DNA of 46,857 nt from an uncultured bacterium (GTDB lineage Bacteria; Muiribacteriota; Ozemobacteria; Ozemobacterales; Ozemobacteraceae). The number at the start of each line of letters is the position of its first letter. Positions within the stretch are counted from its first letter, which is position 1. The notes beneath the pieces were generated by a model that was given only the letters and a program-made list of their open reading frames with translations, ran no database searches and was not told where the DNA came from. Where the stretch lies: contig CAZFUG010000003.1 in assembly GCA_964522035.1 (NCBI GenBank), forward strand, positions 1-46,857. The letters are read 5' to 3'. The translations under genes were made by a program, and so were the position numbers. Of this stretch, positions 4,919 to 28,876 are shown one piece after another.

Positions 4919-4988
4919 GACGCAAAAACTGACGACCCTTGAATTCAAATAGGGCGGAACTGTATTTGCGACTCCAGAGAATCTGGCA

Positions 4989-5207: not shown

Positions 5208-5236
5208 TTGACCTTTTGTAGCTCACAGACTACAAT
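5208..5236 (+). promoter_or_regulatory. Sigma70-type promoter with embedded inverted repeat for higBA
   Basis: TTGACC (5208-5213), a 17-nt spacer, then TACAAT (5231-5236). The inverted repeat TTGTAG-N8-CTACAA (5216-5235) overlaps the spacer and -10. Confidence 0.6.
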
Positions 5237-5252
5237 TATTAGTGAGGGATGA

Positions 5253-8602: not shown

Positions 8603-8735
8603 AATCCTTAGATATTACAGTACAGCCATGGGGCCATAACAAATCAGACTCTCGAAGAGTTGCCGGCAGACAATAAACTTTTGAATATAATACGCATTAA
8701 ATCAATCTGAAGCCACAATCATGATAAAAAAGCCA

Positions 8736-8765
8736 AAAGCCGGGGCTGCAAGCAACCCCGGCTTT
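8736..8765 (-). terminator. Intrinsic terminator closing the tpsA-tpsB-ybjN-like operon
   Basis: AAAGCCGGGG-N10-CCCCGGCTTT is a perfect 10-bp stem, 18 nt after the stop at 8783. On the minus strand it is followed by TTGGCTTTTTT. Confidence 0.7.
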
Positions 8766-8782
8766 CAAAAATCAGCTTAATT

Positions 8783-9238
8783 TCAGGCTTCGGCAGTTTT
8801 AGCGGCTGAATTACCCCATACAATCTGCATCAGAGGGCGATAGTTTTCTTCAAGATTTTTAACGCTCAGGTCAATGAGAGCTCTGATCATGTTGGGTTCG
8901 AACTGTTCACTGGTAGTGGGCAGACAGATATCCATCACGATTTCGCCGGCTTCGGTCACGAAATACTTGAAGGTTTTATAGCTGCTGTTGAGAGTGTTCA
9001 GAAACTTGAGGGTTTCGAGGCGATTCGCATCGGTGAGGCATTTGCCGGCCACAAGAGTGCGGCAGATTACATAAATGCTGTCGTCGATTATTACAACCAG
9101 CGGCAGGCGCTGCCCTTCGATTTCCATTGAAGATCTGAAAAGAACCGTATTCAGTTCATCTTTGACTTCTTCTGGGGAAAAACAGTTGATGCCGTTATCA
9201 GTCAGCATTTTCGCGAATTTTTCGGCCTTGGTGTTCAT
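8783..9238 (-). CDS. YbjN-like / type III secretion chaperone-fold protein (tentative)
   Basis: 151 aa, acidic, with no signal peptide. The alternating beta/alpha pattern (...LPLVVIIDDSIYVICRTLV..., ...YFVTEAGEIVMDICLP...) resembles YbjN-family proteins. SD AGGAG. It lies 19 nt downstream of tpsB. Confidence 0.45.
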   Translation of the reverse strand: MNTKAEKFAKMLTDNGINCFSPEEVKDELNTVLFRSSMEIEGQRLPLVVIIDDSIYVICRTLVAGKCLTDANRLETLKFLNTLNSSYKTFKYFVTEAGEIVMDICLPTTSEQFEPNMIRALIDLSVKNLEENYRPLMQIVWGNSAAKTAEA

Positions 9239-9257: not shown

Positions 9258-10904
9258 TTAAAAAGAAATACTCATCGAAAGTTCGACCTTCTGACCATCC
9301 ACCTGCTGGTTGTTCAATTCTTTGGCGAGCGGATAACCAACGCTCAGAACGACCTGAGAATCATTGGCAAATGAATGGCTGAAACCGAAACCAAGCGAAT
9401 GAATCATTCTGTCTGTTACAAAACTCTTACCATATATTTTACCCCAGTCGTAGAAGGTAAACATCTTTGTTGTTTTCATGCCCTTCAGAGGGAAAAAGTA
9501 ATCAAGTTTGAGGTTCATGCCGCCGTCGCCACCAATAACGCTTTCTTCATAACCCCTGACACTATACATACCGCCCAGAAAAAACTGGTCAGCCGAGGGC
9601 ATGAATTCATCTTTGGCTTTCTGAGCGCTGAGGCGCAGATTGAGCTGCTGATTACCGCGCAAAACCTTCTGCCACATGGCATCTATCTGATATTTCTGCA
9701 CTTTTTTATCTTCGCCCAGACCATCATAGTCACAGAAAGTGATCAGCGGCTTGCAGTAAAGCGCCTGGCCGGGGGAGAGTCTTAAAAATGACGAACCGAT
9801 TGAAAAACGCTTTTCGCTGTCATCAACGAAGGTAATGCCAAACACACGGTTTTCAGAGTTCTGGCGCTGGGCATCGAAGATCAGTTCGCTTTTAAGCCTG
9901 GCCGTTACCTGCAGAGGGTGAGTGATCGAGAAACCGCTTGCCTGAGAACGGCCGCGAATTTCAAGACCGGCATTGTCAATCAGAAGGTTATTGAAGCTGT
10001 GGTAAAGCGACACTCTGGTACCGCGCCGGCTTATCGGCACGTTGTAGCCAAGCATTGCCGCTTTTGATGAATTTGACATCAGCGAAGTCATGGTAAAGGC
10101 ATCACGATTACCGATAACGCTGGAATCAGAGAAGGTCAGGCCCGTACGAGTCTCGCCGGTGCTTTTGTTGCCGGCCGTATCGACAAACAGAACGGCAGTC
10201 TTGTCTAATGGCTCATAAGCCAGAAGAAAACAGTCGGTAGTGCCTGGCTTCTCTCCGGCCTGCAGCTTGATGCGAACTTTCATGTCGTTTGTGCCGTTAA
10301 ACCATGCAAGATCACGATCAAGCGCTCTGATATCGAGAAGTTCACCCTGCGGCACATCGATGCGCCCTCTGATGTAGCCTGAGCGGGTATTGGCATTGCC
10401 CTGAACCAGAACATTGCCGATTTTACCTTCAATCAGAAGGACCTTCAGTTTGCCATCCTTGATTTCCTGGGGGGGTAGAACCGCCATAGCCGTAATATAG
10501 CCATGACTGCGGTACCATTTATTGATATTGCCGATAAATTCTTTAAGTTCGGCAATACCTATTTCACGATTCACATATTTTGCAGCCATTTCCTGCAGCA
10601 TTTCCTGAGGCAAAACCGAAGACTCCGAGAACTCGACGGCTTTAAGATTCACTCTGGTTTCAGGAACCGATGGCTCAGGAATTGGAGCGGCATTTGCAGG
10701 TTTTTCATCCTTTTCCTGGCTTTCCATTTCCTTTTTAAGTTCGCGTTCCATTCGGGTTTTCTGCAGATTGTCGAGAATCCTGTTCAGATCGGCACCAGAA
10801 GTTCTTGCCGGCTCGATAGCCGGCGCAGGCGGGTTGGCAAAAGAACAGGTCAAAGAGGCACAAACAAAAAGAGTTGTCAGCAAAGAGCTTCTATTTTTCA
10901 GCAT
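9258..10904 (-). CDS. tpsB: TpsB outer-membrane transporter (ShlB/FhaC/HecB family, POTRA + beta-barrel)
   Basis: 548 aa with a signal peptide. POTRA-like ...VEFSESSVLPQEMLQEMAAKYVNREIGIAELKEFIGNINKWYRSHGYITAMAVLPPQEIKDGKLKVLLIEGKIG. A beta-barrel follows, ending in ...ELSMSISF (C-terminal Phe). Its ATG shares one nt with the tpsA TGA. Confidence 0.9.
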   Translation of the reverse strand: MLKNRSSLLTTLFVCASLTCSFANPPAPAIEPARTSGADLNRILDNLQKTRMERELKKEMESQEKDEKPANAAPIPEPSVPETRVNLKAVEFSESSVLPQEMLQEMAAKYVNREIGIAELKEFIGNINKWYRSHGYITAMAVLPPQEIKDGKLKVLLIEGKIGNVLVQGNANTRSGYIRGRIDVPQGELLDIRALDRDLAWFNGTNDMKVRIKLQAGEKPGTTDCFLLAYEPLDKTAVLFVDTAGNKSTGETRTGLTFSDSSVIGNRDAFTMTSLMSNSSKAAMLGYNVPISRRGTRVSLYHSFNNLLIDNAGLEIRGRSQASGFSITHPLQVTARLKSELIFDAQRQNSENRVFGITFVDDSEKRFSIGSSFLRLSPGQALYCKPLITFCDYDGLGEDKKVQKYQIDAMWQKVLRGNQQLNLRLSAQKAKDEFMPSADQFFLGGMYSVRGYEESVIGGDGGMNLKLDYFFPLKGMKTTKMFTFYDWGKIYGKSFVTDRMIHSLGFGFSHSFANDSQVVLSVGYPLAKELNNQQVDGQKVELSMSISF

Positions 10905-13900
10905 CAGTCTTTGATTTCCGTTTCTGAGGTTTCATTTTCAACATCTGCAGACATTTCGCGTTCTTCTTCATCTGAATCGGTCAGAAATACCCTGTTTCCA
11001 TGGCTTGCGAGTTTTCCTGAAACGGCATTATCACTGCTGACAGCAGAATAATCGATCATATCTTCAGAACTGCCTGCACCCTCCAGTCCAGCATTGTCAC
11101 GGGCTTTTACATCTTTTCCCATACCCGCGAAATTGCTGCTGAAAATGCCTGCGACTCTGTCGGTCAGGCTCATTTCACTGCGCTGTTTTGCGCGGCGGGT
11201 GACACTTACGCCAGAGCCTGCGAATTTTATTTCAGAAGAGCTGTTTTCGCTGCCGGTAACGACAACTGAAGTCTGATTGTTGGCAAATTGCCCGAGTCCG
11301 AGAAGATCAACGCTGTTGAGCTGTAAATTATCACAGTCTGCGTTGATTCTGGCAGTAATACTGTCAAGATTATCTACCTGAACACCTTTGCCCGACGTAA
11401 TCTTATCAATTGTCACGTCATTCATGTATCTGCCATTGGACCCGGTAAATCCAAGCTTCAGATTATCACCGGTTTCTGTATGCTCAAGCAGACCGCCTTT
11501 GAATTCTCCGGCGGTGACATTCATAGATTCACCAAGCGCGGCCTGGTCGACGTTCACCCTGCCCTGATCGTTGTTGATAATGAGCGTTACCCTTTTTCCG
11601 CCAATATTGGCCAGCATGATATCTCCATTTTCGGTTAAACCGTAAACATCTTCTTCTGCGAGAAGATCATGCACATTGATGCCGCCGGATTCAGCAATCT
11701 GATTGACAGCACTGCCTGAAACTCTGCTGTCTGTTGCGGCTTCAGCATCTTCAAGGTGCAATCTCAGGTTCAGATCAGACTTGCCGGCCAGGTTCAGAGC
11801 CAGTGAGCTCTGAGCCACACCGGAAGTAAGTTTTACATTTCTTGCCCTGACGGTGCGGGCAGTAATGTTGCCTGTGGCGTTAACAGTGAGGTCGTTCGCA
11901 GCAGTCAGTCTGTAATTTGAATTTAATGAGCCGATTAGATTTATCGTAACCATTCTGGCTTCGATATCTCCGAGAGCGGTTATATTGCCGTTATTCCCTA
12001 TGGTAAGGCTGTCACCGCCTCTGACATACTTCAGCTGCAAAGCGGTCTTGTTTTTGAGCACCGTATCGCCACGCCGGTTTTCGATGCCGGCGGTAAGAAT
12101 CTCATTGTTCAGACTGTCGAGAGACATGCCTTCTCTGGTCATTACCTGCAAAGTTCCAGCTTTGATTGCAGATGACGATTCGTTCTGGGTTATCGTGTCA
12201 GCATTGACCTCAAGATAGCCAGAAGAAACATTGCCGGCAAATTCAAGATTGCCGATCTGTTGAATTCTGTCTCTTTCCCTTTCGGTGTTTGCAACACTGC
12301 TGAAACCGGCCAGCTTCAGGCTAACCGAATTGCCAAATTCAATTCTGCCGGTCGATGAGTTGCTTAATGATGCCTGTTTGATCTGGTTATCAATATTGCT
12401 TAACAGCATGCCGTTCTGGGTTACCGCACTGAGATTGTCGGTTATGATCCTGCTGCCACGGTTCTGAGTTAAAGCCAGTGCCTTGAGGTCAATGTTCAGA
12501 GCATTCAGTTCTCTTTCAATCATCAGGCCAGCAGCACAATTCACGAGCATCTTGTCTGATACAGAGGTGGATTTGTTAACTGCCGACAAAATCAGATCGG
12601 TTTTATTCTTCAGTTCCACATTTCCCTTCGTTGCGTTGGCAAGATCAGCACGGCCGATCTCATTATTTGTGCTGTCGATCGAAATACCGTTCACAGCGCT
12701 GACCAGGAGATCAGCAGCCTTAACCACGCTCGACGCTTCGTCCTGCGTAATTGAATCAGCCTTGAGATCGATTCTTTTACCGATCACATTCCCGTTAAGG
12801 CTGATGCTTCCGGTATTTTCGATGACCACTGCACCTGAATCGGCAGAATTATTTTCTGCCAGCAACAGCTTAAGAGTCGGCTTATTTCTGAACAGGATAC
12901 CGCCGGTAGTTTTATTTCTCAGAGAAGCGGCCGAGATATTGTTGAGCTGGCTGTCTATCGACATTCCATCTGTGGTTTCAACCGAAAGCTGCGTCGCGGA
13001 AATTTTGCTGGCGGCCTCATCCTGAGCGACAGACCTGGCCTTAACGAATACATTCAGGGCATTCACTGCGGCACCAAATGTTACGTCTGAAGTGCTGCCG
13101 ATGAAAAACCTAGAATTTGCGGCGGTTGATAAATTATCAATACCCATCAGTTTCAATGAAACGCTGTTTCCAAGCTCAATATCACCGGTCGAAGTATTCT
13201 TCAGGGTTGCCTGGGCAATCTGATTTGTGCCGTTGTTAAGAGACAGGCCGTTAACAGTCGTCACATTCAGGTCTGGAGTGATAACACTTCCATATCTGCC
13301 CTGGGAGATTGAAGTGGCTGAAAAATCTACCTTCGGACCTCTCACGGTACCGTTAACCGCAAGAGACCCGGTATTGACGATCTGCACCTTGTCTGCGGCG
13401 TTCACGGAATTATTATCTACCATTAAAAGTTCGAGATTAACCTTGTTTTTCAGATAGATACTGCCGCTTGTTTTATTAGCGATTGCAGCTTTGGCAATCT
13501 GGTTATTGGCACTGTCGAGCGAAAAACCCTTTTCGGCTCCGGCTTCAAGTTTATCGGTAACTATACTGCTGGTTTTCTCATTCTGAGAAACCGAAAGAGC
13601 CTTGACCGAAACGTTCTTTGCGTTAACTGCCCCGGCAAAATCTACAGCCGCAGTGCTGTTTACCGAAAACATCGATGAAGTTGAGGTCGAAGAGTTGGTA
13701 ATGCCGGCAAGGGTAAGAGCGATCTTATTGCCGAGCGAGATGTTGCCATTCTTCGAATTGCTCAGCGTTGCTTTTTTGATCTGGTTTTCCAGGCTCTGCA
13801 GATTCATGCCGTCACTGGTGGCAACATTCAGATTGTCGGTTTTTATGCTGCTGACAGAATCCTGACTGACAGCTGTTGCGGCAATTTCGATATTTTTGGC

Positions 13901-16900
13901 ATCGACAGCCCCGCCAAACGTCAGATTAGCTGTATTGTTAACTATCAGCTTATCAGTAGACGCCGTTGAAGAATTGGTTATGCCCAGAAGTTTGAGAGCA
14001 GATTTGTTTTTCAGCAGAATACTGCCTGAATTATTGCTGATCGCGGCATTCGATATCTGGTTGTTCAGACTGTCGAGAGCAAAACCGGCTGTGGTTACGG
14101 AATTCAGGGTTCCGGCCTTGATGCTGCTCTTCGCTTCATCCTGCGAGACCAAAGTGGTGTTTACATCCATGGTACCGGCTTCAACCGCATCGCTGAAGTT
14201 AACTGCGGCAGTATCGCTGACAACCTTGAACGCGCCTGTCGAAGCGGTTTTCACTTTACCGATATTCAGTGCCGGCTTACTCGAAGCATTCGTCAAGCCT
14301 TTGATAAAAATGCTGCCGCCAGCAGTTGCATCAACAGAATCAAGGTTGTCTGTAAGCAGTCTGATGCCCTTACCGTCTTCGCCGATGTTTCCTGAATCAG
14401 AAACCAGCGTCAGCTTGCCAAGAGCATTGACATAGCCTGAATCGTCGAAGGTTATACCGGTATTGACGCTGCCCATATTTTTGAAAGAGCGGATTTTAAC
14501 ATCTCCGCCGCCGTAAAGAGCCGAAATATTCAGAGTATTCGCACTGTTCTGGAAGATATTGATATAACCTTCGGCTCTGGCGGTAAGTTTGCCGCTCAAA
14601 TCGGTCACGATTGCCTTGTCTGTTGTCCCAATAGCGCTGGTTGTGCCGACCGCGCCGCCTTCGATTATGAGATCTTTTCCTTTTACGTTAACGGAAGCGG
14701 CATTCGAGTTCAGGTTGAAAATACCGTCTTTGCCGAGAAGGCGTATGTCGCTGCTGCCGGCATTGACGTTCTTCAGATAGATCGGGTCTTCGGTAGCAGC
14801 GGCAATATAGATATTGTTTTTGGCAGTGGCGGTAAGACCGCCGGTTGCATCTATCATTTCGATGCCAATAGCGGTTTTGTTGTTGATGATCGCCTTGCCT
14901 TCGGCCTCTTTCCAGGTAATATCGGAAGCTTCGGCTCCCGCCAGTTTTTTGAGCACGTCGAGATTACTGCTGAGATTGGCGATGCTCAATTCTTCCGGGG
15001 TGCCATCTTTGCCGATTCCGCCGTTTACAGCGGTAAGAGTTATGTTTTTGCCCTTGACGTTGGCCGGGCGGTTAATAGAACCTGTCGAGCCGGAAGTCGG
15101 ATTCATGATCGATTTCTGCAGGGCATAGAGAAGGTTGTCTTTTGTCCAGCCGTAAGTATTATTGGCAATCTTGTAATAATCGCTCGACGCATCTGCTTTT
15201 TTAGCGGTCAGATAGGCGGCGGCAGAAGAATACGAGCCATATTTTTTCAGCAGTTCATTATAGGATGCGGTTTTTGTAACCGTCGGGTTAGCGGCATAGA
15301 AAGTCTTCTGGGCAGAGAAAGAGGCAAACTCACTCTTAACCGAATTTTCGTAATCAGCAAGCACACGCGTCTTGACCGCCGCGCTGTTATCGGTTCCATC
15401 TGCGTTGATCAAGCCCATGGAAATCCATTTTTCGACCAGATCATCGCCCTTTCGATCGTTTGAATTGTCGACAACCGGCAGAACATTGTCGAAACTGCCA
15501 TTGGTAACTTTCAGTTCGACATCGCCAGTTTCTGATTCAATGCGGCCAAGTCTCATGTCTCCAGAGGTCTGTTCGAGATAAATACCGTTGCGGGCTTTGG
15601 CATTAATGCTGGCAGACATGGTGTCGCCGGAGGCTGCCGGAGTCTGCCCGGCCTGAATCCAGAGTGCTGACCCGGTTTTACCGATACTGCCATTGTTGCT
15701 GACCAGGTCGATGCGGCGACCCTTAACAAGGGCATCAGCAGCTGAAGATCTTGAAATAGATCCATCCACAGTCAGCTTAACATCGCCGCCAGTCGTGACT
15801 TTACCGAGTTCAAGATTTCCCTGCTTACCAGACGAAGCTTTGGAAACAATATTGATATTGCCGGTTGTTGAAACCGCCGACAAAGAACCATTATCACTGA
15901 CGCCAAGATGCTTTATGGCGCCATCTGAGCCAATACCGCTCTTTGCGGTAAGATTGAGGTGGTCGCCGATCAGACGGCCGCCAGTCTGCTGGATTGAACC
16001 ATTCGTGGCCGAGATTGTCATGCTCGTTCCGGCATGACCAGCAATATCGCCTGTCATATTCACGTTCCCGGCAGAAGAAACATTCACTTTGCCGCCGCTC
16101 GTAGAACCGATGAAACCGATGTTTATATTGTGGTCAGCTTTTATGGAATGCTGGAAAGTCAGAATCTTGCCGACTGTCGAGCCCCATTTGTAATGTTCCG
16201 AACCACGTGACTTGATGGCATTGCTGTAGGTAATCCATTTATCGAAGTAGCTTGAATAGTAATCAACGTCGTTGTCATAATTGATTACATATTCACTGGT
16301 GCCGGATTTTGGCAGAGTTCCGATATAGGTTCCGGGAAGCCTGTTCTGCTCGCCAGAGCTTGAGCTGAGCAGGTTTTCTTCGCTTTCATACTCATGAATG
16401 GTGGTTTCATTTTTTGTATAGCCGCCCCAGAGCCTGAAATCGACCTTTTTATAGTAGTTTTCAACCGCCGCAACGGTTTTTCCTGTCGTCCAGTTGTAGT
16501 ATTGCCCGGTCTTTGGCGTGTAAACAGCCGAGGGCCCTGAAATGGTCGAAGTTGTCGCTCCTATCGTTCTGGTCGATGTCGAATCACGTCTGAATTCGGT
16601 AATGTTGTTCTTTTCGAGGTCAGTAATACTGATCAGACCGGCTTCCTTGCCGAGGTTGATTTTGCCAAGGGTTATCGGGCGGCTGGTCTGATTTACCAGA
16701 TTAATTTCAGAAGAACCGTCGAACGCCAGGATTTTACCGTTCCCGGTGCTGGCAATACGACCGGTCAGATATACCCGACCGCCCTTCGGATCGATATCTT
16801 CAAGAATGACCTGTTTTGTCTGCGGGTTATAATAAGCCTGAACTTCAAAATACCATTTGCCGGCAGAATCTTTTTTAACTCCGCCGGTGTTGAGTTTGTA

Positions 16901-19900: not shown

Positions 19901-22900
19901 CAAGGTAACGGCGGCAGAGGTGTCGTTATCGATCTGGGTGATCAAGGCACCGGCAGCGATCATGCCTGCAGTCAGGCCATAGGATTCTGCAGTAGCCGAA
20001 GTTGTATCATCGGCACTTATCAGAATGTTTCCGGTCGATGTCAGACTGCTGTTTGTAAGCTCTGTAAAGACCTTGCCGCCGGTACCGATTCGCCCGTATG
20101 CGGCTGTGCCAGCACCAAGATAGCCTATGGAGCCCTGATACATGTCGAGATCGCTTGAACCGGTTATTTTAGCATTTACATCAGTAGTTTTACCGGAAAC
20201 CAGCGTTGCATTGGTCAGTTTTGCAGCGACATTCCTGTTTACATCGATAAAGCATGCCGAACCGCCTGCAGCAACCATGCCAACGGCCCCTGAGCCACCG
20301 ATTACTGAAAAGTTGGAATCCTCAACGGCTTTAACATTTATCGTTCCCTGCGAATCGAGAGTCGACCCGACAGTGGCGTCGATTTTTCCGACAGCCACAG
20401 CAGTTGCCGCTCTGCCTGCTTCTGAAGAGGTCAGTTTGCCGCCGTCGGCATTCAGCGAAAGCTTTTCGGCATCGGTCAGCGCACCATTGCTTTCGCTGAT
20501 ATTGCCAGAATTAACCTTTTCTGCAGAAGAAACAGCATCTCTGACGTTTGACGCACCATCTTCATCTGTATTGATGAGAAGATTGCCTGAGGAAATATAT
20601 ATGACATTGCCGGCAAAACCACCGATTCCGGCGGCGGCGGTGAAGGCGTTCTGAGTGACATTGCGAACTTCTCTGGCCGTGATATCGATTGAATTGACCG
20701 CTAAAAGTTTGCTGCCGTCGACAATCGCCCTGGTTTTTCCGTCAAGAACGCTTACCCCTGCAGAAACGCCGGCACCAACCGCTCCGACAGCGACAGTGCC
20801 CAGATTGGCATCGAGGGTCAGGCTGTCATCGGCTTTAACCGTCACATCTGTTGCGCGATTGGTCATATTGCTGTTCTTCACATTTGCCAGAACATCGGTT
20901 TCGATGATATTAAGCCCGACATTGCCGGCAAGACCTGCCATGCCACCCGCAACTGCGGCACCAATCGTTTTCAAAGTCATCTGATTGATTGCCTGAACTT
21001 CGAATTTTCCGGAACCGTTCGCCTTCATGGCAACGTTACTCGAAGTCACTTCGGCCTTAACTTTATCTCTGATGTCATTGATTCCGACTGCACCGCCAAC
21101 TCCGACATACCCGCCGACAGAAGCCGTTCCGTCAACGATGCTGGTTCTTGCCCAGTGGTTTGCTTTTACCAGCAGACTGTTAACAGTAAGGTTGGAGTTA
21201 TTAACAACAGCCTCGGTATTGCTCTTCAGCACATTGACCGAAACTGTGCCGGCTACCGAATTCAAGCCGCTCAGGCTGATGCCGGCGTCGATTGCAGAAA
21301 TACCGGTTTTGGCTTCGGAAGTGACAGCAACATCCTTTGCTGTCGACCCGGTGATGGTTCCATCCATTTTGGCTGAAGTCGTACGGTTAACAATACCTGA
21401 ATCCGAGGTCATGCCGACTCCAGAGCCGCCGGAAATTCCTACCGACCCGACAAAGCCGGAGAGATTGGCATAATCACCCGAATTTATGCTGACATCGCCA
21501 CCGGTTACACCATTGTTGATTCTGGTATTTGAAACTCTGGCACTGGTTTCGCCGGCAATACGGCTCACATTTACGGTGCCGGTAACTGCAATACCGCCCC
21601 CGGCGGCATTGGCAACAAAAGATTTAAGAGTGTGGGTTGCTGAACTGTCGACAACCAGGCCCTTTTTCGTCGATGCCGCTCTCTGCTTTTCGAGAGTATA
21701 TTTTACATTCAGGGTCGAATCATCGATAAACCCGCTGTTCATGCTGGTATCAGAAATACCATTATTTAGAGATACCGAGCCGGCCAGGCCCTTTGCCTGA
21801 ACCGTGGCATTTTCGACATATGCTCTGGTGTTACCCTGAATGTCGTTGACACTCAGCGCGGCACCGACGCCGGCGACGCCACCGGCAACCACTCCTGAAT
21901 AATTAAGCAGGGTTTCGTCGCTCTGCGCCACGACCCCGATATTGTCTTCGGCGACAATATTTGCATTACCATCAATAAAGGAACTGACATTATTCTTGAT
22001 GACATTGACCGCGACCGAACCGGAAACTCCGGCATAAGCGCCACCGGCTCCGGCAACACCTATGGTTCTTATGGTCTGGGTTGCCTTTGACCGTATATCA
22101 AGATCTTTTATGGCCAGAACGCCGCCAGTAAGCGAAGAAGTGACGTCATCACTCATTCTGTTAACAACGACACCGGCGCCAACACCGACGCTCTTGCCGA
22201 TCGAAACGACGGTGGCATTGCTGTTGATTTCGCCGGTGCTTTCAGCAACAACATCAATGCTCGAATCGTTTTTGGTTTCGGATACGTTGTTCATCCCTGC
22301 CGAAATGGTTCTCGAAATTTCGCTGGTTGCAGCCGCACCCTGAACGGCGACTTCGCCGGCACCACCACAGCCGGAGGCGAGAGTCCAGATGTCGGCATCG
22401 TTAGTGCTCTTGACCGTAACATTTTTGCCGCCGACAGTGACGTTGTTGACAGCGGCAGCGGTTTTGCCGTTAATTTCGTTATAAGCAACCGCGCCACCGA
22501 TAGAGGCCTCACCGCCGAAACCCAAGGTGCCGGAAATAGACTTGATATCGGAACTTTCGGCAGCAATCGTCGAGAAATTTTCAAAGTTGCTGTCAGAAAT
22601 ACCTGAAACAGTCTTTGTGACCCCGGCATCGTCAACATAGCGGTTATCTACCAGAGCCCCGGTATTGTTATCGATATCGTTTATCGCAACCGAACCGCCG
22701 ATACCGACCTGATTGCTCACGGGCACAGAAAGTGCAAGATTCATGATCTCGCCGTTGTTGATGGCGTTGACCAGGAACTGTGAGCCGACAACGCTGTAAC
22801 CCGGGCCAGTAACCTTTGTTGCCAGACAGAAAGCGTTCGAATTGTTAACGATTTTGTTGTAGGTAAAAGCGAGGCCGATTGCCGGCCCTTTGCCTGCCGA

Positions 22901-25900
22901 AACCTGACCGGCTATGCCAATAATTCTTGAATCATTGCCAGCCTTGCTCAGGTAATTGCCAGTTGTAATAACCGAATTAACGGTGCCAGAATTAACTTTA
23001 GAGCTGATATCGTTCCAGATTACAGAGCCGCCGGCAGCAGCGTTCTTTTTGCTTACGGCAACGCCACCGGCAGCACTGACCATGAACGTATCCGACTTCG
23101 CATTGGTTTCGACCGTGCCGACACCAGCATTGATCGTGCTGTTTTTAATTTCAGCAGAAAAATTGTTGTCGATATCATTGATCGAAAGACCGGCACCGAC
23201 TGCTGTATCGGCAACACTGATTGCCATTGCTCCCGAAACGATGAGAGAGCCTTTTTTAATCTGGTCTTTCAGTGACGTATCAAGTTCTCCGTCGGCTTCA
23301 TTTGAAGCATCGACATCGTAATAGTCGCCGCCATCGGTATCAACGAATGAACTGACACCAGAATCAGCGCGGTCAAGTATCTGCCCGAAACCGGTCTCAT
23401 TTTCACCGAGAAAATAATCCCTGGCGTTGACAGAAACTTTTCCTGAGGCAGTTATGTTTGCCTCATTGATTTCTGCCTTGAGATTATTGTTGGTTTCGTT
23501 ATAGATCATGGCACCCATAAGAGAGACAGTGCCGTCTGTACCCGTTACTATGCCGGCAGTGACAGCACCGTTGATCTGAGCGATTGCCTGCAATGCCGCA
23601 ACAGCAACGTCGTTGACCATATTGAAAGTGCCGCCGGTAATTTTTGCCGACACATTGTTGTCAATTTTTGAAACGTTCACAGCGGCGCCAAACGCGCCCT
23701 TCTGCTGCCCCACCGTAACCTGGACTCCGCCGGTAATCTGCAGATCGCTTTCGTATGCTGCGACTTTGACGTCTGTTTTCAGGCTGCTTTTTCCGGTGAC
23801 ATTGGTGTTATTGAGTTCGGCATTCACGGTATTATCAATGTTGTTGAGAGAAACCGAACCGCCCATGGTAAAAGCACCGGCGGCGTTGCCCGAGTTTTTA
23901 GAAACCTGAAGACCAAGGGCTGCAGCGACATCGGTGCCGCCATTGACTGCAAAAACATTGAGGTCGTCGGCGTTGTTAACGGTGCTGTTCTTGATAACAG
24001 CTTCGGTTTTATTCTTGAGCATATTCAAACCAACCGCACCAGCGATGCCAACGCTTTTGCCTGAAGTATCCTTCGTAGCGGTCTGATACATTATGCCTGC
24101 AGTACCTGCAAAGGCCATTACATCGGTGTTGTTGACGGCAATGGCATTCAGATTCGAACCGGCAACACCACCGAGATCGAGGGTCATACCGCTTATATCG
24201 ACCACGGTGTTTGTGTCGATAAAATTCAGACCGCCGCTGCCGGCAACCGAAAGGCTGACACTCGGGTTTGTATGTGTTCCAGTGCTGCTGGTTTTGGTTT
24301 TATTAGAAAGCTCAGAGGTTATATTCGAGAACTTGCCCGAAATTGAATTGATGGTGCCGACCACCTTGCTTTCGGCATCGTTGGCTTTTCCAGATATTTT
24401 GTCGGTAATACCGGGCGCGCCGCTGTCGTCATTTTTGGTAATGCCACCGGCAACGCCGGCGGCAATGAAACCGCCTTTACTTTTGGCCTGGGCATCGATC
24501 TGGCCGGTCACAGCAATTTTGGCATCGGTTCTGCTTCTGGCACTGTCGGCCGTGGTGGCTTTATCGATTCCGGCCTTTTCATCGAGATAGTCCTGGTATT
24601 TTTTATCGATGTCGCCAATCAGCACGATGCTGTCTTTGACGAAGTCATTGATGGCAAAACCGGCAGCAACACCGACTGAACTCGAAATCATCACCGATCC
24701 GGCAAAATTGATGATTCTGGTATTGTTCAGAGCATTAAGTTTGAGGTTTTTTGTCGATGCGACGCTGGCCTCGTTGTCAAAGTTAACAGAGGCATCACTG
24801 ACACCGGTCAGATGAGTAAACATGCCCTGTATGCCGGCTCCGGCCATGGCGGCTGCAAAACCGCCAACGACAGCTTTTGCATCGCTGGTGGCAGAAATCG
24901 AAATGTCTTTGCTGCCGCCGATCAGGTTTACTCCCTCCGGCACCATGACTTTTGCAGAAGAATTGAAATCCTGAGAGAAGTAGGTTCCGCCCATGGCTTT
25001 TGAACCAGAACTCGGGATCAGATAACCGGCGGCACTGATCATGTCTATATCAGTATTAGCAGCGACTTTTATTGAATCAGAGACTGAGGTCGCGGGATTT
25101 ACAGACTGAATGGTGACATTGCGGCCAATCAGAACATTGCTGTTGGCCTTGAAATCTGTGAGACCGACAGCCCCGGCAAAACCGATATCCGTTGTATTTT
25201 CTTCATTTGCACCTTTAACGGCACTCGAAACCGCAGTGTTGAGGAAATTATTGTAGAAAGCAAAGTCGGCGGCAGAAGTGACGATTTTTGCCGCCTCGGC
25301 CACGATGCGATTTTCCCCGGTAATAAGGTTATTGAGGGCTGTGGTCATGGTGCTCAGCGAAGTAAGAGCGTCAATGAAACCGGTGATGTTTTCTGCTTTG
25401 CTCAAGCCTTCGGAACCAACAGCCGAAAATTTATTTTTGATGGTCTGGTAGGCAGTTTCGACCGAGTTGATCATGGACAGCTGAGTTGAGTCGGAAACCG
25501 AGATTTTGAGCGTGGCGATCGCATCTTCGATCGCGGCGATCATGCGCTTAACCCGGTTATATTCTACTTTAACTTCGCTGCTGATATCGACAGTCTTACC
25601 GGTAAGAACGGTGCCATTGCCGGTTGTTGCATTGTAAGAGGCATCGGCAACCTTTACAGTTGAGTCCTGAGAAATGTCTGAATAAATAATACCGGCACTG
25701 ACAGAGGCCTTTGCGCCGTCGGCGGTATTCATTTTCGATCTGGCAACGCTGTCGGCCTGAATAAACAGATCCTGGACCACGGAAGAAGACTTGAGTATCA
25801 GATCGTTGCCTGAAGTCAGCTTGACGTCGCTGCCAATTGTCAGACCGGCATCATGACTGCCCCGGTTTACTACAATCGCGCCGGCAGCCCTGAATTTGGT

Positions 25901-27946
25901 CGACTGGTCCTTGATCGGCCCGGTAAATTTTGAGGTGAGCTTGCTCAGGCTGAAAATGCACGAAACTATGCTCGACTGAAGGTTTGCCACCGCCTGCGAA
26001 ATTTTTGTGTGGCCCACCGTGCCTTTTGCGGTCGAGCGATTCTGCAGCACAAGGTTATAAGCAGAAAGGTCGATATTGCCCGGAGCATTGATGCTGCTGT
26101 TGACGCTGACTTTTGCCGAAGAGTCGAAATCGGTAAAATTGATTGCAACCCCGGCATAGCTGTCATCACCGGTTTCGACTATGGCCGTAGTGGCCACATC
26201 GCTGCGGTTGGTTGCCTTGCCCTTAACTGCCCGTTTAGCATTCACTGATGCGGAATTGTTAACCTTGATGTCTGAGCGGTTGGTAACCTTGCCGATAACG
26301 ATGCCCGTGGAAATTGCGGCCTTGTCATTTGCAGTTTTCGAAGCGGCCGTGGCATCGAGAGAATTGTCTGAAAGAGCGTTGATCGTTATGTCGCCCGCAG
26401 TTGCATCGCCGGTGGTGCCGGCATTGAGGCTGCCGTCGATGACAACATTGGCGTCGCTGCTTACTTCGGCAAAGACAACCCCGGCGGCAACTCCGCCTGA
26501 AGTCTGTTTGATCTTGGCTATTGAGGTACTCGCACCGACAATGACGTCTGTTTCACTCGACGCTTTGATGTCGATGTTCTTTTTGGAGGTAACAATCGCA
26601 CCCTGTTTGACTTTAACCTCAGCCTTACTGCTTACGACTGCCGTTTGTGCCGAGATGTTTACCGGCGATACCATGCCGACGATCATTATACCCAGATCAG
26701 TCGGGCTTGTTGAGCTTTTATAAACATTGGTCGCAAAAGCCCGCATGTTGATATCATTGTCAGCATTGATTCTTGCAGTTGTATCCACTTCAACAGTGGC
26801 ATTCACCGAAGAAATCGAGTCGGCACCGACAAAGGTTTTAACTTCTTTGTTTTCGCCATATTGAACGATGGTTTCTTTGCCCGAAAGCGTGCCGTTGACG
26901 GCGACGGCCTCGAAACTGGCGTTACGTTTTGCGTTTACCGTGCCCTTAACGGTCACTTTCGCATCCGAGGTGGCTTTAATATATGAACTGAAGCCGTCTG
27001 ACCCCTTTGAGGTCGAAGAGATTCTGCCGACATTGTCAGCAACAGCTACCAGTTCGACGTTTCCGTCTTCGTTCGTGGTCATCGCCAGGCCGGAAACATT
27101 TACGTCGACAAGATCTGTCTGTGAGAAGAATGAGCCGTTCTCGTCCTGTTTCCAGATGTTGCTGGTATTAACCAGGGCGGAAAAATCGGTAACTCCGGTG
27201 TCGATTCTGGCGCCGCTTTCGAGGGTCACATTGCCGGCATGGGCGCTGACGTTGTCAACAGCATTGATTCGGCCGCCAATCACGATCGAGCCATCTGAGT
27301 TGAGCGGAACTCCGTCACCGGAAACAACACCGTTATGATTGACGAATTTACGTGAGGTGATCTGTGCAATCTCGGCAGCGTTGCCATCGATATTGAGACT
27401 GTAATCGCCGCCGACGAATTTATCCATAAATTCGCTGGTCGGGGTCATGGCATAAAACGCGCCGCAGTTAACAACCCCTGAACTACCGAGAACAAGTCCC
27501 TGAGAACTCAGAAAAAAGAGATTTCCGCCGATTTTATGGTCTTTAATGGCATTTACGGTACCATCGATCTCGATTCTCGATTTAACGAAATTGATCAGAT
27601 TGGCAGTGCCATTGGGAAGGTAAAAATTCGCCGTGTCGTTGGTTGCAAGATTGAAGCTGCTGAAAGAGTTGAAAGCATTGGTGCCGGAAATTTTCTGTGA
27701 AACGATGTGATAGTTGTAGTTACCGCTGTTGCCCGGATCGTAATAGACTGTTGTATTACCGGCATCATGAGCCTGGATATCAGTATAAGCAACCTGTCCG
27801 GCAGCAAAGTTGGATGTGGCGAGAAAACCCAGACCGGCAATGCCGGTCGCAATTTTTTTCAAGGTTTTGTCGAAGACACCTGGAGTTGAATTTTTTCTGG
27901 CAAACGATCTTAAAATACGCCTTTTCCAGGTTTTCAGCAGACTCAT
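10904..27946 (-). CDS. tpsA: Giant two-partner-secretion exoprotein (TpsA; filamentous haemagglutinin / LktA-like beta-helical adhesin), 5,680 aa
   Basis: A single 17,043-nt ORF with SD AGGAGA. It starts with an extended signal peptide (~50 aa). A TPS domain follows (...NAFNSFSSFNL..ANFYLPNGTANLINFV...IDGTVNA...GNLFFLSSQGLVLG), which carries the degenerate NPNL/NPNG blocks. After that come thousands of residues of G/A/S/T/N/V-rich beta-helix repeats such as GGSVAINDIDNNTGALVDN. Confidence 0.9.
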   Translation of the reverse strand: MSLLKTWKRRILRSFARKNSTPGVFDKTLKKIATGIAGLGFLATSNFAAGQVAYTDIQAHDAGNTTVYYDPGNSGNYNYHIVSQKISGTNAFNSFSSFNLATNDTANFYLPNGTANLINFVKSRIEIDGTVNAIKDHKIGGNLFFLSSQGLVLGSSGVVNCGAFYAMTPTSEFMDKFVGGDYSLNIDGNAAEIAQITSRKFVNHNGVVSGDGVPLNSDGSIVIGGRINAVDNVSAHAGNVTLESGARIDTGVTDFSALVNTSNIWKQDENGSFFSQTDLVDVNVSGLAMTTNEDGNVELVAVADNVGRISSTSKGSDGFSSYIKATSDAKVTVKGTVNAKRNASFEAVAVNGTLSGKETIVQYGENKEVKTFVGADSISSVNATVEVDTTARINADNDINMRAFATNVYKSSTSPTDLGIMIVGMVSPVNISAQTAVVSSKAEVKVKQGAIVTSKKNIDIKASSETDVIVGASTSIAKIKQTSGGVAAGVVFAEVSSDANVVIDGSLNAGTTGDATAGDITINALSDNSLDATAASKTANDKAAISTGIVIGKVTNRSDIKVNNSASVNAKRAVKGKATNRSDVATTAIVETGDDSYAGVAINFTDFDSSAKVSVNSSINAPGNIDLSAYNLVLQNRSTAKGTVGHTKISQAVANLQSSIVSCIFSLSKLTSKFTGPIKDQSTKFRAAGAIVVNRGSHDAGLTIGSDVKLTSGNDLILKSSSVVQDLFIQADSVARSKMNTADGAKASVSAGIIYSDISQDSTVKVADASYNATTGNGTVLTGKTVDISSEVKVEYNRVKRMIAAIEDAIATLKISVSDSTQLSMINSVETAYQTIKNKFSAVGSEGLSKAENITGFIDALTSLSTMTTALNNLITGENRIVAEAAKIVTSAADFAFYNNFLNTAVSSAVKGANEENTTDIGFAGAVGLTDFKANSNVLIGRNVTIQSVNPATSVSDSIKVAANTDIDMISAAGYLIPSSGSKAMGGTYFSQDFNSSAKVMVPEGVNLIGGSKDISISATSDAKAVVGGFAAAMAGAGIQGMFTHLTGVSDASVNFDNEASVASTKNLKLNALNNTRIINFAGSVMISSSVGVAAGFAINDFVKDSIVLIGDIDKKYQDYLDEKAGIDKATTADSARSRTDAKIAVTGQIDAQAKSKGGFIAAGVAGGITKNDDSGAPGITDKISGKANDAESKVVGTINSISGKFSNITSELSNKTKTSSTGTHTNPSVSLSVAGSGGLNFIDTNTVVDISGMTLDLGGVAGSNLNAIAVNNTDVMAFAGTAGIMYQTATKDTSGKSVGIAGAVGLNMLKNKTEAVIKNSTVNNADDLNVFAVNGGTDVAAALGLQVSKNSGNAAGAFTMGGSVSLNNIDNTVNAELNNTNVTGKSSLKTDVKVAAYESDLQITGGVQVTVGQQKGAFGAAVNVSKIDNNVSAKITGGTFNMVNDVAVAALQAIAQINGAVTAGIVTGTDGTVSLMGAMIYNETNNNLKAEINEANITASGKVSVNARDYFLGENETGFGQILDRADSGVSSFVDTDGGDYYDVDASNEADGELDTSLKDQIKKGSLIVSGAMAISVADTAVGAGLSINDIDNNFSAEIKNSTINAGVGTVETNAKSDTFMVSAAGGVAVSKKNAAAGGSVIWNDISSKVNSGTVNSVITTGNYLSKAGNDSRIIGIAGQVSAGKGPAIGLAFTYNKIVNNSNAFCLATKVTGPGYSVVGSQFLVNAINNGEIMNLALSVPVSNQVGIGGSVAINDIDNNTGALVDNRYVDDAGVTKTVSGISDSNFENFSTIAAESSDIKSISGTLGFGGEASIGGAVAYNEINGKTAAAVNNVTVGGKNVTVKSTNDADIWTLASGCGGAGEVAVQGAAATSEISRTISAGMNNVSETKNDSSIDVVAESTGEINSNATVVSIGKSVGVGAGVVVNRMSDDVTSSLTGGVLAIKDLDIRSKATQTIRTIGVAGAGGAYAGVSGSVAVNVIKNNVSSFIDGNANIVAEDNIGVVAQSDETLLNYSGVVAGGVAGVGAALSVNDIQGNTRAYVENATVQAKGLAGSVSLNNGISDTSMNSGFIDDSTLNVKYTLEKQRAASTKKGLVVDSSATHTLKSFVANAAGGGIAVTGTVNVSRIAGETSARVSNTRINNGVTGGDVSINSGDYANLSGFVGSVGISGGSGVGMTSDSGIVNRTTSAKMDGTITGSTAKDVAVTSEAKTGISAIDAGISLSGLNSVAGTVSVNVLKSNTEAVVNNSNLTVNSLLVKANHWARTSIVDGTASVGGYVGVGGAVGINDIRDKVKAEVTSSNVAMKANGSGKFEVQAINQMTLKTIGAAVAGGMAGLAGNVGLNIIETDVLANVKNSNMTNRATDVTVKADDSLTLDANLGTVAVGAVGAGVSAGVSVLDGKTRAIVDGSKLLAVNSIDITAREVRNVTQNAFTAAAGIGGFAGNVIYISSGNLLINTDEDGASNVRDAVSSAEKVNSGNISESNGALTDAEKLSLNADGGKLTSSEAGRAATAVAVGKIDATVGSTLDSQGTINVKAVEDSNFSVIGGSGAVGMVAAGGSACFIDVNRNVAAKLTNATLVSGKTTDVNAKITGSSDLDMYQGSIGYLGAGTAAYGRIGTGGKVFTELTNSSLTSTGNILISADDTTSATAESYGLTAGMIAAGALITQIDNDTSAAVTLTGNTISSGGSASQVNIKAERAGTLTAKSLGGAAGLFAAGTGIGSTIKDAGSATVTSTGGTYTGKSKISFDATSKPTAVSEAKSAAISGLVSAGVSVAKSELSGTTEVSVSGTNSFNAPEVAFSSTNSGKNTLLAEGLSGGFLTSFGYNLSDAQNNSIVKVLIGDSTFINKATKLALNGTNIVTQNVETRGLNIGGIVASGNNKAKAESNTSTKVELTGNSTSAREVGSIDIKADSSSIHDIAADGNGGGLISVDGLSAYAINKMTTLAEAVISGKWKITDKLNLFAAQNDTVNMSADSMRAALIGYSGTKAENTINSTTKVAIADNSAVDANGNIEFQAKNTIDCNDDGANSASGGGYGGIVVNGAYSDSSITSTTEAKIGKNASLVTNGDIYGEALTDAEIHNRVLTEGAGMVANPLAHSYNTVSFNNKLLTGTNSVLKTVKPGKNINLAASDNLTAVLTADSDMQGGLGGYSEAKTSADISRNNTVDISGDIYSANDARLYTDADARGKTAVYTLTATADAYNKHSAVAVAKATLDSTTNQNNKININSGADINTIRHIALHSGTGKMAMTETASEYTWYSSSTTGGYTSTASGLRSKNLVTGNTVTVNGSLVSGINNYVELKITGLVDLLGLVTGSTTSPTVTSTVSQYAAGVTTGIMDYGNELFTRYQEICGLIAEYAGTVAGAGYLAEKTRLLAEMEKYGLYDPATETVIGGLYIQYLSLPDMVCSGGNVSIDADKVAGTGSIDAKGAPQIVINNDSNLYMKVNDLSIIDYGGELIYNSLSLGNTAKTVFTTLSKVQTSDSSSARIAINENWNGTLNVVEDGVNKTLTPITNIELNGNISNPQGKVVIDNRSGDIVMQGATAETGATITAGEIEMKASEGAISQGFSDGILNIGGTPEEIYKDFATVQETLINGNESTSVSKTSVSNSIDESRQQGTWIAGGSVYLSATNINVNGLIQSGYSEYKMTLSTDAQNKINLFDKNYTGQNITPDMLQAYKLNTGGVKKDSAGKWYFEVQAYYNPQTKQVILEDIDPKGGRVYLTGRIASTGNGKILAFDGSSEINLVNQTSRPITLGKINLGKEAGLISITDLEKNNITEFRRDSTSTRTIGATTSTISGPSAVYTPKTGQYYNWTTGKTVAAVENYYKKVDFRLWGGYTKNETTIHEYESEENLLSSSSGEQNRLPGTYIGTLPKSGTSEYVINYDNDVDYYSSYFDKWITYSNAIKSRGSEHYKWGSTVGKILTFQHSIKADHNINIGFIGSTSGGKVNVSSAGNVNMTGDIAGHAGTSMTISATNGSIQQTGGRLIGDHLNLTAKSGIGSDGAIKHLGVSDNGSLSAVSTTGNINIVSKASSGKQGNLELGKVTTGGDVKLTVDGSISRSSAADALVKGRRIDLVSNNGSIGKTGSALWIQAGQTPAASGDTMSASINAKARNGIYLEQTSGDMRLGRIESETGDVELKVTNGSFDNVLPVVDNSNDRKGDDLVEKWISMGLINADGTDNSAAVKTRVLADYENSVKSEFASFSAQKTFYAANPTVTKTASYNELLKKYGSYSSAAAYLTAKKADASSDYYKIANNTYGWTKDNLLYALQKSIMNPTSGSTGSINRPANVKGKNITLTAVNGGIGKDGTPEELSIANLSSNLDVLKKLAGAEASDITWKEAEGKAIINNKTAIGIEMIDATGGLTATAKNNIYIAAATEDPIYLKNVNAGSSDIRLLGKDGIFNLNSNAASVNVKGKDLIIEGGAVGTTSAIGTTDKAIVTDLSGKLTARAEGYINIFQNSANTLNISALYGGGDVKIRSFKNMGSVNTGITFDDSGYVNALGKLTLVSDSGNIGEDGKGIRLLTDNLDSVDATAGGSIFIKGLTNASSKPALNIGKVKTASTGAFKVVSDTAAVNFSDAVEAGTMDVNTTLVSQDEAKSSIKAGTLNSVTTAGFALDSLNNQISNAAISNNSGSILLKNKSALKLLGITNSSTASTDKLIVNNTANLTFGGAVDAKNIEIAATAVSQDSVSSIKTDNLNVATSDGMNLQSLENQIKKATLSNSKNGNISLGNKIALTLAGITNSSTSTSSMFSVNSTAAVDFAGAVNAKNVSVKALSVSQNEKTSSIVTDKLEAGAEKGFSLDSANNQIAKAAIANKTSGSIYLKNKVNLELLMVDNNSVNAADKVQIVNTGSLAVNGTVRGPKVDFSATSISQGRYGSVITPDLNVTTVNGLSLNNGTNQIAQATLKNTSTGDIELGNSVSLKLMGIDNLSTAANSRFFIGSTSDVTFGAAVNALNVFVKARSVAQDEAASKISATQLSVETTDGMSIDSQLNNISAASLRNKTTGGILFRNKPTLKLLLAENNSADSGAVVIENTGSISLNGNVIGKRIDLKADSITQDEASSVVKAADLLVSAVNGISIDSTNNEIGRADLANATKGNVELKNKTDLILSAVNKSTSVSDKMLVNCAAGLMIERELNALNIDLKALALTQNRGSRIITDNLSAVTQNGMLLSNIDNQIKQASLSNSSTGRIEFGNSVSLKLAGFSSVANTERERDRIQQIGNLEFAGNVSSGYLEVNADTITQNESSSAIKAGTLQVMTREGMSLDSLNNEILTAGIENRRGDTVLKNKTALQLKYVRGGDSLTIGNNGNITALGDIEARMVTINLIGSLNSNYRLTAANDLTVNATGNITARTVRARNVKLTSGVAQSSLALNLAGKSDLNLRLHLEDAEAATDSRVSGSAVNQIAESGGINVHDLLAEEDVYGLTENGDIMLANIGGKRVTLIINNDQGRVNVDQAALGESMNVTAGEFKGGLLEHTETGDNLKLGFTGSNGRYMNDVTIDKITSGKGVQVDNLDSITARINADCDNLQLNSVDLLGLGQFANNQTSVVVTGSENSSSEIKFAGSGVSVTRRAKQRSEMSLTDRVAGIFSSNFAGMGKDVKARDNAGLEGAGSSEDMIDYSAVSSDNAVSGKLASHGNRVFLTDSDEEEREMSADVENETSETEIKD
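12020..14200 (-). repeat. Coding tandem array of about 7.5 diverged ~92-aa repeats in the TpsA C-terminal quarter
   Basis: The unit (L/I)DSxNNQIxxAxLxNxxxGxIxLxNKxxLxLxG...V..A..V.Q(D/N)E.SSI....L......G recurs head to tail. Copies are diverged at both protein and DNA level. Confidence 0.8.
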
Positions 27947-28094: not shown

Positions 28095-28110
28095 AGAGGG
28101 ATTTCCCTCT
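28095..28110. promoter_or_regulatory. Perfect palindrome between the response regulator gene and tpsA (candidate regulator site)
   Basis: AGAGGGA-TT-TCCCTCT lies ~150 nt upstream of the tpsA ATG. No U-tract follows it on the transcribed (minus) strand. Confidence 0.35.
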
Positions 28111-28237: not shown

Positions 28238-28876
28238 TCAACTGGTGCCGTCTTTGTCGAACATATCATTTTTGTATGCAAGAATGGCCTTCTGGCGCAA
28301 CTGTTTGATGCCAGTGACATTAAGCTTATTCATTATTCTCACACAATATGATTCCAGTGTACGAACACTGATGCCGAGCTCACTGGCAATACTGCTGTTG
28401 CTCAGACCACGGCCGAGCAGGCTGTAAATCTGCTTTTGCTGGGCGCTGAGTTCATCTATCGGGTCTGAGTCCGACAATATTTCGACAACCTGCGGGCTGC
28501 GATAGATTTTACCGGCAAGAACGCAATTTATGGCTTCAACCAGAATGGCCGGGGTCTCCCTTTTGGTCACATAGCCGGCGGCGCCGGCCTGAAAAGACTG
28601 GCGAACGACGCTTGCTGTTTCATGCATCGAATAAACGAGCGTCAGGCGGCCCGCTTCCTGCAACCTGCTGATCAGAGCAAGACCACTGCTATCTCCGAGC
28701 GAAAGATCGATAATGAAAAGCCTGAAGCTGTCGAAGTCGGAGTGTGAAAATACGCCGACAGGGTCGGCTGCCTGACCGGCAACTCTGAAGCCGGCAGCGG
28801 TGAGCAGATGCTGCAGACCATCGCGCACCAGAGGATGATCGTCGACAATCATGATTGCAGCATCTTTTGTCTTCAT
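28238..28876 (-). CDS. NarL/FixJ-family response regulator (REC + LuxR-type HTH)
   Basis: 212 aa with IMIVDDHPLVRDGL, the phospho-acceptor context FIIDLSLGD, and the C-terminal LSAQQKQIYSLLGRGLSNSSIASELGISVRTLESYCVRIMNKL. Confidence 0.9.
   Translation of the reverse strand: MKTKDAAIMIVDDHPLVRDGLQHLLTAAGFRVAGQAADPVGVFSHSDFDSFRLFIIDLSLGDSSGLALISRLQEAGRLTLVYSMHETASVVRQSFQAGAAGYVTKRETPAILVEAINCVLAGKIYRSPQVVEILSDSDPIDELSAQQKQIYSLLGRGLSNSSIASELGISVRTLESYCVRIMNKLNVTGIKQLRQKAILAYKNDMFDKDGTS

Follow-up and report, generated by a model that had tools for sequence, protein, structure and literature searches.

The leukotoxin LktA of Fusobacterium necrophorum has been assigned to the type Vb secretion system (bioRxiv 10.1101/534297), and its gene lies in the operon lktB-lktA-lktC, the last product of which, LktC, carries a 'sensory transduction regulator' domain (PMC11350119). 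In such two-partner secretion (TPS) systems, an exoprotein (TpsA) is paired with a transporter (TpsB). Published LktA has ~3,200 amino acids (aa), and in both the FHA and the HMW1 systems tpsA precedes tpsB. In this paper, we have analysed a window of 46,857 nucleotides (nt), i.e. the whole contig CAZFUG010000003.1 (C3) of a 5.1-Mb, 547-contig short-read metagenome bin that is 88.7% complete, in which a 17-kb open reading frame (ORF) on the minus strand had been described from its letters alone (the sequence-only reading hereafter) as a TpsA exoprotein translationally coupled to its transporter. We find that the product of this ORF, which belongs to an uncultured member of the Riflebacteria (Rifleibacteriota), is very probably an LktA-family exoprotein of 583 kDa that is secreted by the type Vb route, and this candidate phylum can thus be added to those with two-partner secretion of the LktA type.

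The assignment is carried by two family models, which match different parts of the protein. An LktA-type TPS domain at aa ~73-266 (27149..27730, minus strand) is recognized by NF012204 (adhes_FxxPxG, leukotoxin LktA family filamentous adhesin; cut-off 60 bits). When the 350-aa N-terminus is searched, the match spans aa 80-245 and scores 152 bits, and the score is 140 bits on a 3,000-aa tile and 145.9 bits in a six-frame search of the genome. Further on, aa ~1250-2950 (19097..24199, minus strand) are made up of LktA-type tandem repeats of ~53 aa, to which NF012206 (LktA_tand_53) matches in 17 stretches with 173.5 bits (cut-off 50), and self-BLAST of the protein gives a ladder with the same ~53-aa spacing. 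The sequence-only reading had noted that the central repeat resembles LktA; as both NF012204 and NF012206 match, the resemblance can be upgraded to family membership. As far as the NCBIfam models and the published descriptions go, the likeness to the F. necrophorum system comprises the FxxPxG-type TPS domain, the 53-aa repeats, a TpsB partner and a small third gene of the YbjN type. On the other hand, the order of the genes is A-B-C (tpsA-tpsB-ybjN/lktC-like) here and B-A-C in F. necrophorum, the giant protein is much longer than published LktA and carries a lineage-specific array of 93-aa repeats, and its host is an environmental member of a candidate phylum; cytotoxicity is not implied.

The giant tpsA ORF (10904..27946, minus strand) runs from ATG to TGA over 5,680 codons, and its translation contains no internal stop, just as the sequence-only reading had it; the product has a calculated isoelectric point (pI) of 5.1. 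At the 3' junction, which reads AAA GAC TGA TG CTG, base 10904 is both the end of the tpsA stop codon and the start of the next ATG. This overlap of 1 nt, which had been pointed out before, is found again with the identical TGATG in four related riflebacterial loci (L019, L020, L024 and L025), and because the stop/start overlap is conserved, the two genes are putatively coupled in translation. The downstream gene (9258..10904, minus strand) encodes a 548-aa transporter of the Omp85 family with a signal peptide, and matches PF08479 (POTRA_2, 73.7 bits) and PF03865 (ShlB, 74.2 bits) with scores that exceed the Pfam cut-offs in both cases; its product is a bona fide TpsB, which bears out the proposed pairing of the exoprotein with a transporter. 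Orthologues of this TpsB with 52-75% identity adjoin the giant gene in relatives. In the metagenome-assembled genome (MAG) SRP304446_co1_153, both orthologues of the giant gene stop ~1.6-2.2 kb short of tpsB without an overlap (in L021 the frame ends at 13249 and tpsB lies at 14874; in L023 the positions are 14261 and 16501), which may be due to premature stops, frameshifts or errors of assembly in these copies.

The protein starts with a long leader of the Sec type (aa 1-50; 27797..27946, minus strand), as the sequence-only reading had claimed when it spoke of an extended signal peptide. The ~50-aa leader has a basic, extended n-region with 10 K/R in residues 1-31, followed by the hydrophobic stretch IATGIAGLGFLATSNFAAG and an apparent ...FAA/GQ end, as read from the sequence and the hydropathy profile. 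The Pfam model ESPR found no match in this leader, and a canonical ESPR was present in 3 of 15 diverse N-termini of the family. The TPS domain behind the leader had been called recognisable but degenerate. It is indeed recognisable, if weakly and below threshold in the generic models, as PF05860 (TPS) scores 30.7-32.5 bits (E 1e-7 to 4e-7; cut-off 33.5) and TIGR01901 scores 26.6 bits (cut-off 29.1) on the isolated N-terminus, and PF05860 matches 8 of the 15 diverse family N-termini at E<=0.01 (best E 3.5e-9). The term degenerate does not hold in view of the 152 bits with NF012204; judged by these model scores, the domain is a distinct LktA-type 'FxxPxG' subfamily rather than a degenerate generic TPS domain. 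The motif from which the family takes its name is FYLPNG at aa 108-113, and, going by position and by what is known of FHA-type TPS domains, we take LPNG within it to be the equivalent of the canonical NPNL block, and NSFSSFNL to be the upstream 'NxFxxFNV' block. The equation of NPNL with NSFSSFNL made in the sequence-only reading could thus not be confirmed and is probably wrong. The second equation, NPNGI with LSSQGL, is plausible and probably right; on the same reading, SSQG, which lies 37 residues beyond LPNG, is the equivalent of NPNGI.

Several repeat types had been predicted to follow the TPS domain, and three can be distinguished: divergent repeats at aa ~300-1250, the 53-aa repeats at ~1250-2950, and a 93-aa type at ~4527-5380. 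The divergent repeats (24197..27049, minus strand) are rich in G/S/A/V/T and were defined by their composition and a self-similarity of 24-30%; a homologue of the 'pre' segment at aa 300-900 occurs in 73 of 88 long relatives (see below), and these repeats presumably form a beta-helical stalk. Between the 53-aa and 93-aa repeats lies a conserved, non-repetitive central module of ~1,400 aa (aa ~3100-4520; 14387..18649, minus strand) that is rich in Tyr, Trp and Pro and bears the motifs INVNGxIQSGY, YYNPxT..EDIxPxGGxVYLTGRISSTGxG, GLIxITD and YxPxxGLRYNWTxG. An AlphaFold2 (AF2) model of aa 3250-4449, computed from an alignment of 24 sequences from four phyla, has a predominantly beta body with a mean predicted local distance difference test (pLDDT) score of 80.5 and a predicted template modelling (pTM) score of 0.69. 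The model includes a helical insert at ~3345-3385, a helical bundle at ~4160-4281, and very long beta-hairpins at ~3815-3936, which coincide with the aromatic-rich stretch. This module is most likely the functional (binding) core of the LktA family.

Behind the central module, self-BLAST identified eight to nine tandem repeats of ~93 aa with 27-49% identity (aa ~4527-5380; 11807..14368, minus strand). The orthologue P0006 has fewer copies; in Ca. R. amylolyticum, the orthologue deviates from the present protein in copy number. As far as the sequences compared here go, these repeats are specific to the riflebacterial subfamily, and the array may be a lineage-specific variable spacer or stalk. 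They are followed by a conserved C-terminal domain (aa ~5400-5600; 11147..11749, minus strand), in which the identity to five full-length orthologues is 56-72% for aa 5401-5500 and 45-71% for aa 5501-5600, and by a divergent acidic tail (aa 5601-5680; 10907..11146, minus strand) that has 19 D/E in 80 aa, is predicted to be disordered, and ends in ...ENETSETEIKD, an ...ENSETE... ending being common to the orthologues. In the AF2 model of aa 5000-5680, built from 6 sequences, a regular beta-solenoid with pLDDT >90 extends to ~aa 5375, after which the confidence is low at 5379-5494 and moderate at ~5500-5590, and the tail is disordered.

Pfam scans of 3,000-aa tiles of the whole protein (E<=0.01) returned no family, including Fil_haemagg and Fil_haemagg_2, and at E<=10 seven tiles of aa 2900-5680 gave only noise, the last 500 aa having no match at all; the C-terminal half had no match in Pfam, NCBIfam or PDB, and phmmer searches with both halves of the protein against the PDB sequences found nothing. 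Likewise, Foldseek found no match in PDB at E<=0.001 for the AF2 models of aa 3250-4449 and 5000-5680. The lists below this threshold contain the beta-helix passengers EspP, Hap and EtpA as well as TPS domains, and for the central module secretin and aerolysin-type sheets, none of which we count as evidence. The models nevertheless agree with a beta-helical passenger in the parts that they cover, as aa 5000-5375 are predicted to form a solenoid and the central module to be mostly beta; for aa 1-3250, a beta-helical structure may be assumed from the composition and the family. The 1,400-aa core module is a unit for which there is neither a Pfam or NCBIfam model nor a structural relative.

In the sequence-only reading the size and the domain mix of the protein had appeared unusual, and this impression has to be corrected. 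When aa 3100-4299 were searched with phmmer against 1.84 billion cluster representatives, the central module was found in 590 representatives at E<=1e-3 and in 191 at <=1e-30, most of the matching proteins being 5,000-6,700 aa long with the module at about the same coordinates. We then counted the parts of the architecture in the 88 representatives that have 4,500 aa or more, using hmmsearch with its filters off (--max). The three main segments of the central module are present in all 88, a fourth central segment in 79, and the same type of TPS domain also in 79, while the C-terminal domain is weakly detectable in 29, and the 93-aa repeat in 8, i.e. the close riflebacterial orthologues plus one weak match. 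A size of ~5,000 aa or more and this layout are thus typical of the LktA family, hundreds of such giants sharing one fixed architecture. With the default HMMER filters, the TPS domain was detected in 16 of the 88 instead of 79; the default bias and composition filters drop most true relatives, which are rich in G/S/A/N, and this is probably why the family looks sparse in routine searches. LktA-type giants are probably under-called by routine annotation pipelines for this reason.

The motif N[VIL][ND]Gx[IV]QSG[YF] was used to scan the genomes of GTDB species, and 209 loci were confirmed in this way. Their hosts include Ca. Rifleibacterium amylolyticum, HGW-Riflebacteria-1 and others among the Riflebacteria; Phascolarctobacterium, Selenomonas, Megasphaera, Mitsuokella, Succiniclasticum, Dialister, Anaerovibrio and Acidaminococcus among the Negativicutes; and Fusobacterium, Oxalobacter, Parasutterella and other Sutterellaceae. 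LktA-type giants abound in gut and rumen Negativicutes, Fusobacteria and Sutterellaceae. The giants of the Negativicutes (Phascolarctobacterium, Selenomonas, Megasphaera, Succiniclasticum), Sutterellaceae and Oxalobacter resemble the present protein in their length (5,000-6,900 aa), in the type of the TPS domain, in the central module at ~aa 3100-4500 (30-46% identity), and in having TpsB and YbjN-like neighbours. They differ in that they belong to a separate clade, lack the 93-aa array, have a weakly similar C-terminal domain or none, and show the gene orders A-C-B or A-C. A quick maximum-likelihood tree, computed for the module, unites the Riflebacteria in one clade apart from the others, with a Shimodaira-Hasegawa-like approximate likelihood-ratio test (SH-aLRT) support of 97. 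Two loci binned as Bacteroides sp. CAG:545 (L076) and Escherichia coli (L091) are, by their place in the tree, near-identical to Phascolarctobacterium succinatutens loci, and are almost certainly mis-binned Phascolarctobacterium contigs, not transfers. Within the phylum, 8 of 41 related genomes carry the giant gene; five of these belong to the same genus, and two of those have two copies. Such a patchy occurrence fits an accessory surface protein. With this locus, a family that is known and barely characterised gains a new member from a candidate phylum.

The sequence-only reading had also described a two-gene unit. The TpsB partner stands, as shown above, while the restriction to a pair does not, since tpsA and tpsB are followed by a third cistron in what is a three-gene operon (tpsA-tpsB-ybjN/lktC-like). 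This gene (8783..9238, minus strand) starts 19 nt after tpsB and encodes an acidic YbjN-like protein of 151 aa (pI 4.85) without a signal peptide, apparently the equivalent of lktC. YbjN belongs to a family that resembles type III secretion chaperones. Copies with 72-90% identity lie beside the system in three relatives, two of which have the order A-B-C and the third B-C-A. Eighty loci were taken for a wider count, of which 37 were informative, that is, included the 3' end of the giant gene and continued past it for 800 nt or more; in 17 of them, the giant gene is directly followed by a YbjN-like homologue (E 1e-26 to 1e-41), and in 10 by TpsB. Those with the YbjN-like neighbour include two Fusobacterium/Fusobacteriaceae loci, which also share the central module, and in Phascolarctobacterium the order is A-C-B. 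The third gene is thus seen across at least four phyla in the orders A-B-C, A-C-B, A-C and B-C-A, and the unit is a conserved three-gene set with a permuted order. Most plausibly, the YbjN-like protein is a chaperone or a regulator for the giant substrate. Some of the riflebacterial homologues are labelled 'histidine kinase' at NCBI; they are mislabelled.

Taken together, these features would fit a secretion route of the following kind via TpsB. The long Sec leader would direct the unfolded chain across the inner membrane; the LktA-type TPS domain would then dock on the POTRA domains of the TpsB that is expressed with it, and the chain would thread through the TpsB barrel and fold outside into a very long beta-solenoid fibre. 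This fibre would consist of the successive repeat types with the central module embedded in them, followed by the 93-aa stalk and the C-terminal domain, and if fully beta-helical, it would by our estimate have a length on the order of 100 nm. In an organism of sludge and groundwater, its role is most likely adhesion or cell-cell contact in flocs and biofilms. We also consider, as a doubtful extension, that the central module, which hundreds of LktA-type giants of 5-7 kaa from gut, rumen and environmental diderms have in common, is a new functional unit, a receptor-binding or membrane-engaging 'head' in the middle of the fibre with a hairpin topology that may resemble that of CdiA, and that the cytoplasmic YbjN-like protein is its dedicated chaperone before export. 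If true, LktA-type TPS systems would work as machines of three components, and the central module would offer a way to test how the F. necrophorum leukotoxin acts. In any case, the module and the YbjN/LktC-type partner offer handles on the function of the giants, including the veterinary leukotoxin.

Several observations weigh against the assignment as a secreted adhesin of the LktA family. The generic TPS models PF05860 and TIGR01901 stay just below their curated cut-offs, and a profile made from the TPS regions of 15 family members found no solved TPS domain when compared with PDB; the structure models span aa 3250-4449 and 5000-5680, not aa 1-3250; and the match of the third gene product to PF10722 (YbjN) is barely over its cut-off (23.4 bits against 22). 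The evidence for an adhesin function consists only of the family name and the architecture, and the prototype after which the family is named, LktA, is a cytotoxin. Finally, the RNA support discussed below comes from assembled contigs of libraries that possibly contain DNA.

Since the prototype is a cytotoxin, it has to be asked whether the giant protein is a cytolysin or another membrane-damaging toxin like F. necrophorum LktA, with a central module that inserts into membranes or binds a target and acts on microbes or protists. The family is shared with the leukotoxin, the module contains long beta-hairpin sheets, and among the best Foldseek matches (E 0.09-1.2), none of which is significant, are secretin barrels and pore formers of the aerolysin type. 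However, there were zero Foldseek matches at E<=0.001 and the TM-scores were 0.03-0.18, the hairpins as read from the sequence are aromatic-rich and not amphipathic and Ser/Thr-rich, the NCBI name of the family is that of an adhesin, and the organism is environmental; moreover, there was no evidence of processing or activation genes, and the Pfam scans found no toxin domain in the giant protein. We therefore regard a cytolysin as improbable, though it is the one alternative that deserves to be kept in mind beside the secreted adhesin of the LktA family.

Far less likely still is that the 17-kb ORF is an artefact of assembly, through collapse or expansion of repeats or a chimera, as might be suspected from a short-read metagenome bin of 547 contigs, the low depth of 3-9x in every run, and a few chimeric joints that were seen. 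Errors within the repeats that break the frame had been named as what would overturn the sequence-only reading. Tandem Repeats Finder reported no tandem DNA repeats in the 17-kb gene, and its longest direct DNA repeats are 25-68 nt long with 63-81% identity; the protein repeats are old and diverged, and therefore offer nothing that an assembler could collapse. Logan contigs of four DNA runs from sludge, aquaculture and groundwater metagenomes, of which one is probably the source sample and three are other samples, cover the coding region with zero gaps, and those of the three other samples tile the gene likewise. In these three divergent samples, the listed substitutions fall overwhelmingly at coordinate mod 3 = 2, i.e. 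the third codon position of the minus-strand frame, and the between-strain comparison with independent assemblies showed no indels. In addition, five orthologues that come from other assemblies or MAGs and have 5,038-5,727 aa align end to end with the giant protein (55-68% identity), those from riflebacterial MAGs with 5,709-5,727 aa being collinear with it, and the architecture agrees with that of the 88 long relatives. The gap-free tiling, the collinear orthologues and the lack of tandem DNA repeats exclude an artefact for practical purposes on the basis of short-read data. A contig of the independent groundwater run X4 skips 187 nt at 22978-23166, inside the region of the 53-aa repeats, a feature which speaks for the artefact if anything and which may be a strain-level indel, a divergent segment or a contig chimera. 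Assembled cDNA contigs from three wastewater/biofilm RNA libraries cover pieces of the giant gene, and are weak evidence that it is transcribed.

Contact-dependent inhibition, in which a CdiA-like protein delivers a C-terminal toxin, was rejected as a reading with next to no chance of being right: the locus does share with CdiA/CdiB a giant TpsA paired with TpsB and a non-repetitive centre between two repeat types, with a distinct repeat type C-terminal of the central region, and the Tyr/Pro-rich centre, in our view, loosely recalls the receptor-binding domain (RBD)/YP region of CdiA, but Pfam searches as permissive as E<=10 revealed no PT-VENN (VENN/pretoxin), FHA-1/FHA-2, DUF637 or toxin domain, the full-length orthologues have a C-terminal domain that is conserved to the degree given above and not polymorphic, and the genes downstream are tpsB and a ybjN-like gene known across phyla, not an immunity gene. 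With FHA (FhaB/FhaC) and HMW1, the secreted adhesin proposed here has in common the logic of two-partner secretion, a presumed beta-helical fibre and a long leader, and it differs from them in that no Fil_haemagg or Fil_haemagg_2 was detected, the generic TPS models stay below threshold, and no solved TPS domain was matched in sequence.

What the locus adds beyond routine annotation is the family-wide 1,400-aa module, the conserved YbjN/LktC-type gene and a candidate operator; the locus itself is not exceptional in spite of them. At its downstream end, a strong intrinsic terminator (8733..8768, minus strand) with a 16-bp stem containing 8 GC pairs and a subsequent T-run follows the YbjN-like gene. 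Directly past it, on the same strand, lies a gene for a fused protein resembling the major facilitator superfamily (MFS) and spermidine synthases (7013-8602; NF037959, 237 bits), which has no evident link to TPS.

At the upstream end, Pfam and NCBIfam identify a response regulator of the NarL/LuxR type (28238..28876, minus strand) and a HisKA_3 histidine kinase (28873..30219, minus strand), which form a two-component system directly upstream of tpsA on the same strand; the order histidine kinase-response regulator-tpsA recurs in the two relatives G009 and G005. A simple scan found no sigma-70-like promoter. In three riflebacterial species, the intergenic region between the regulator gene and tpsA is unalignable except for a single conserved block, AAAAATGAGnGnGnAATCnCTCTnA, which holds the palindrome AGAGGGA-NN-TCCCTCT (7-2-7; 28095..28110) ~150 nt upstream of the ATG of tpsA. 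The counterparts of the palindrome lie at ~9720 in L011 and at ~480 (reverse strand) in L013, and in one species both arms have changed in a matching way to AGAGTGA..TCACTCT, a compensatory change. The palindrome is a good candidate for the binding site of the adjacent NarL-type regulator, through which the two-component system would probably control the expression of the giant exoprotein.

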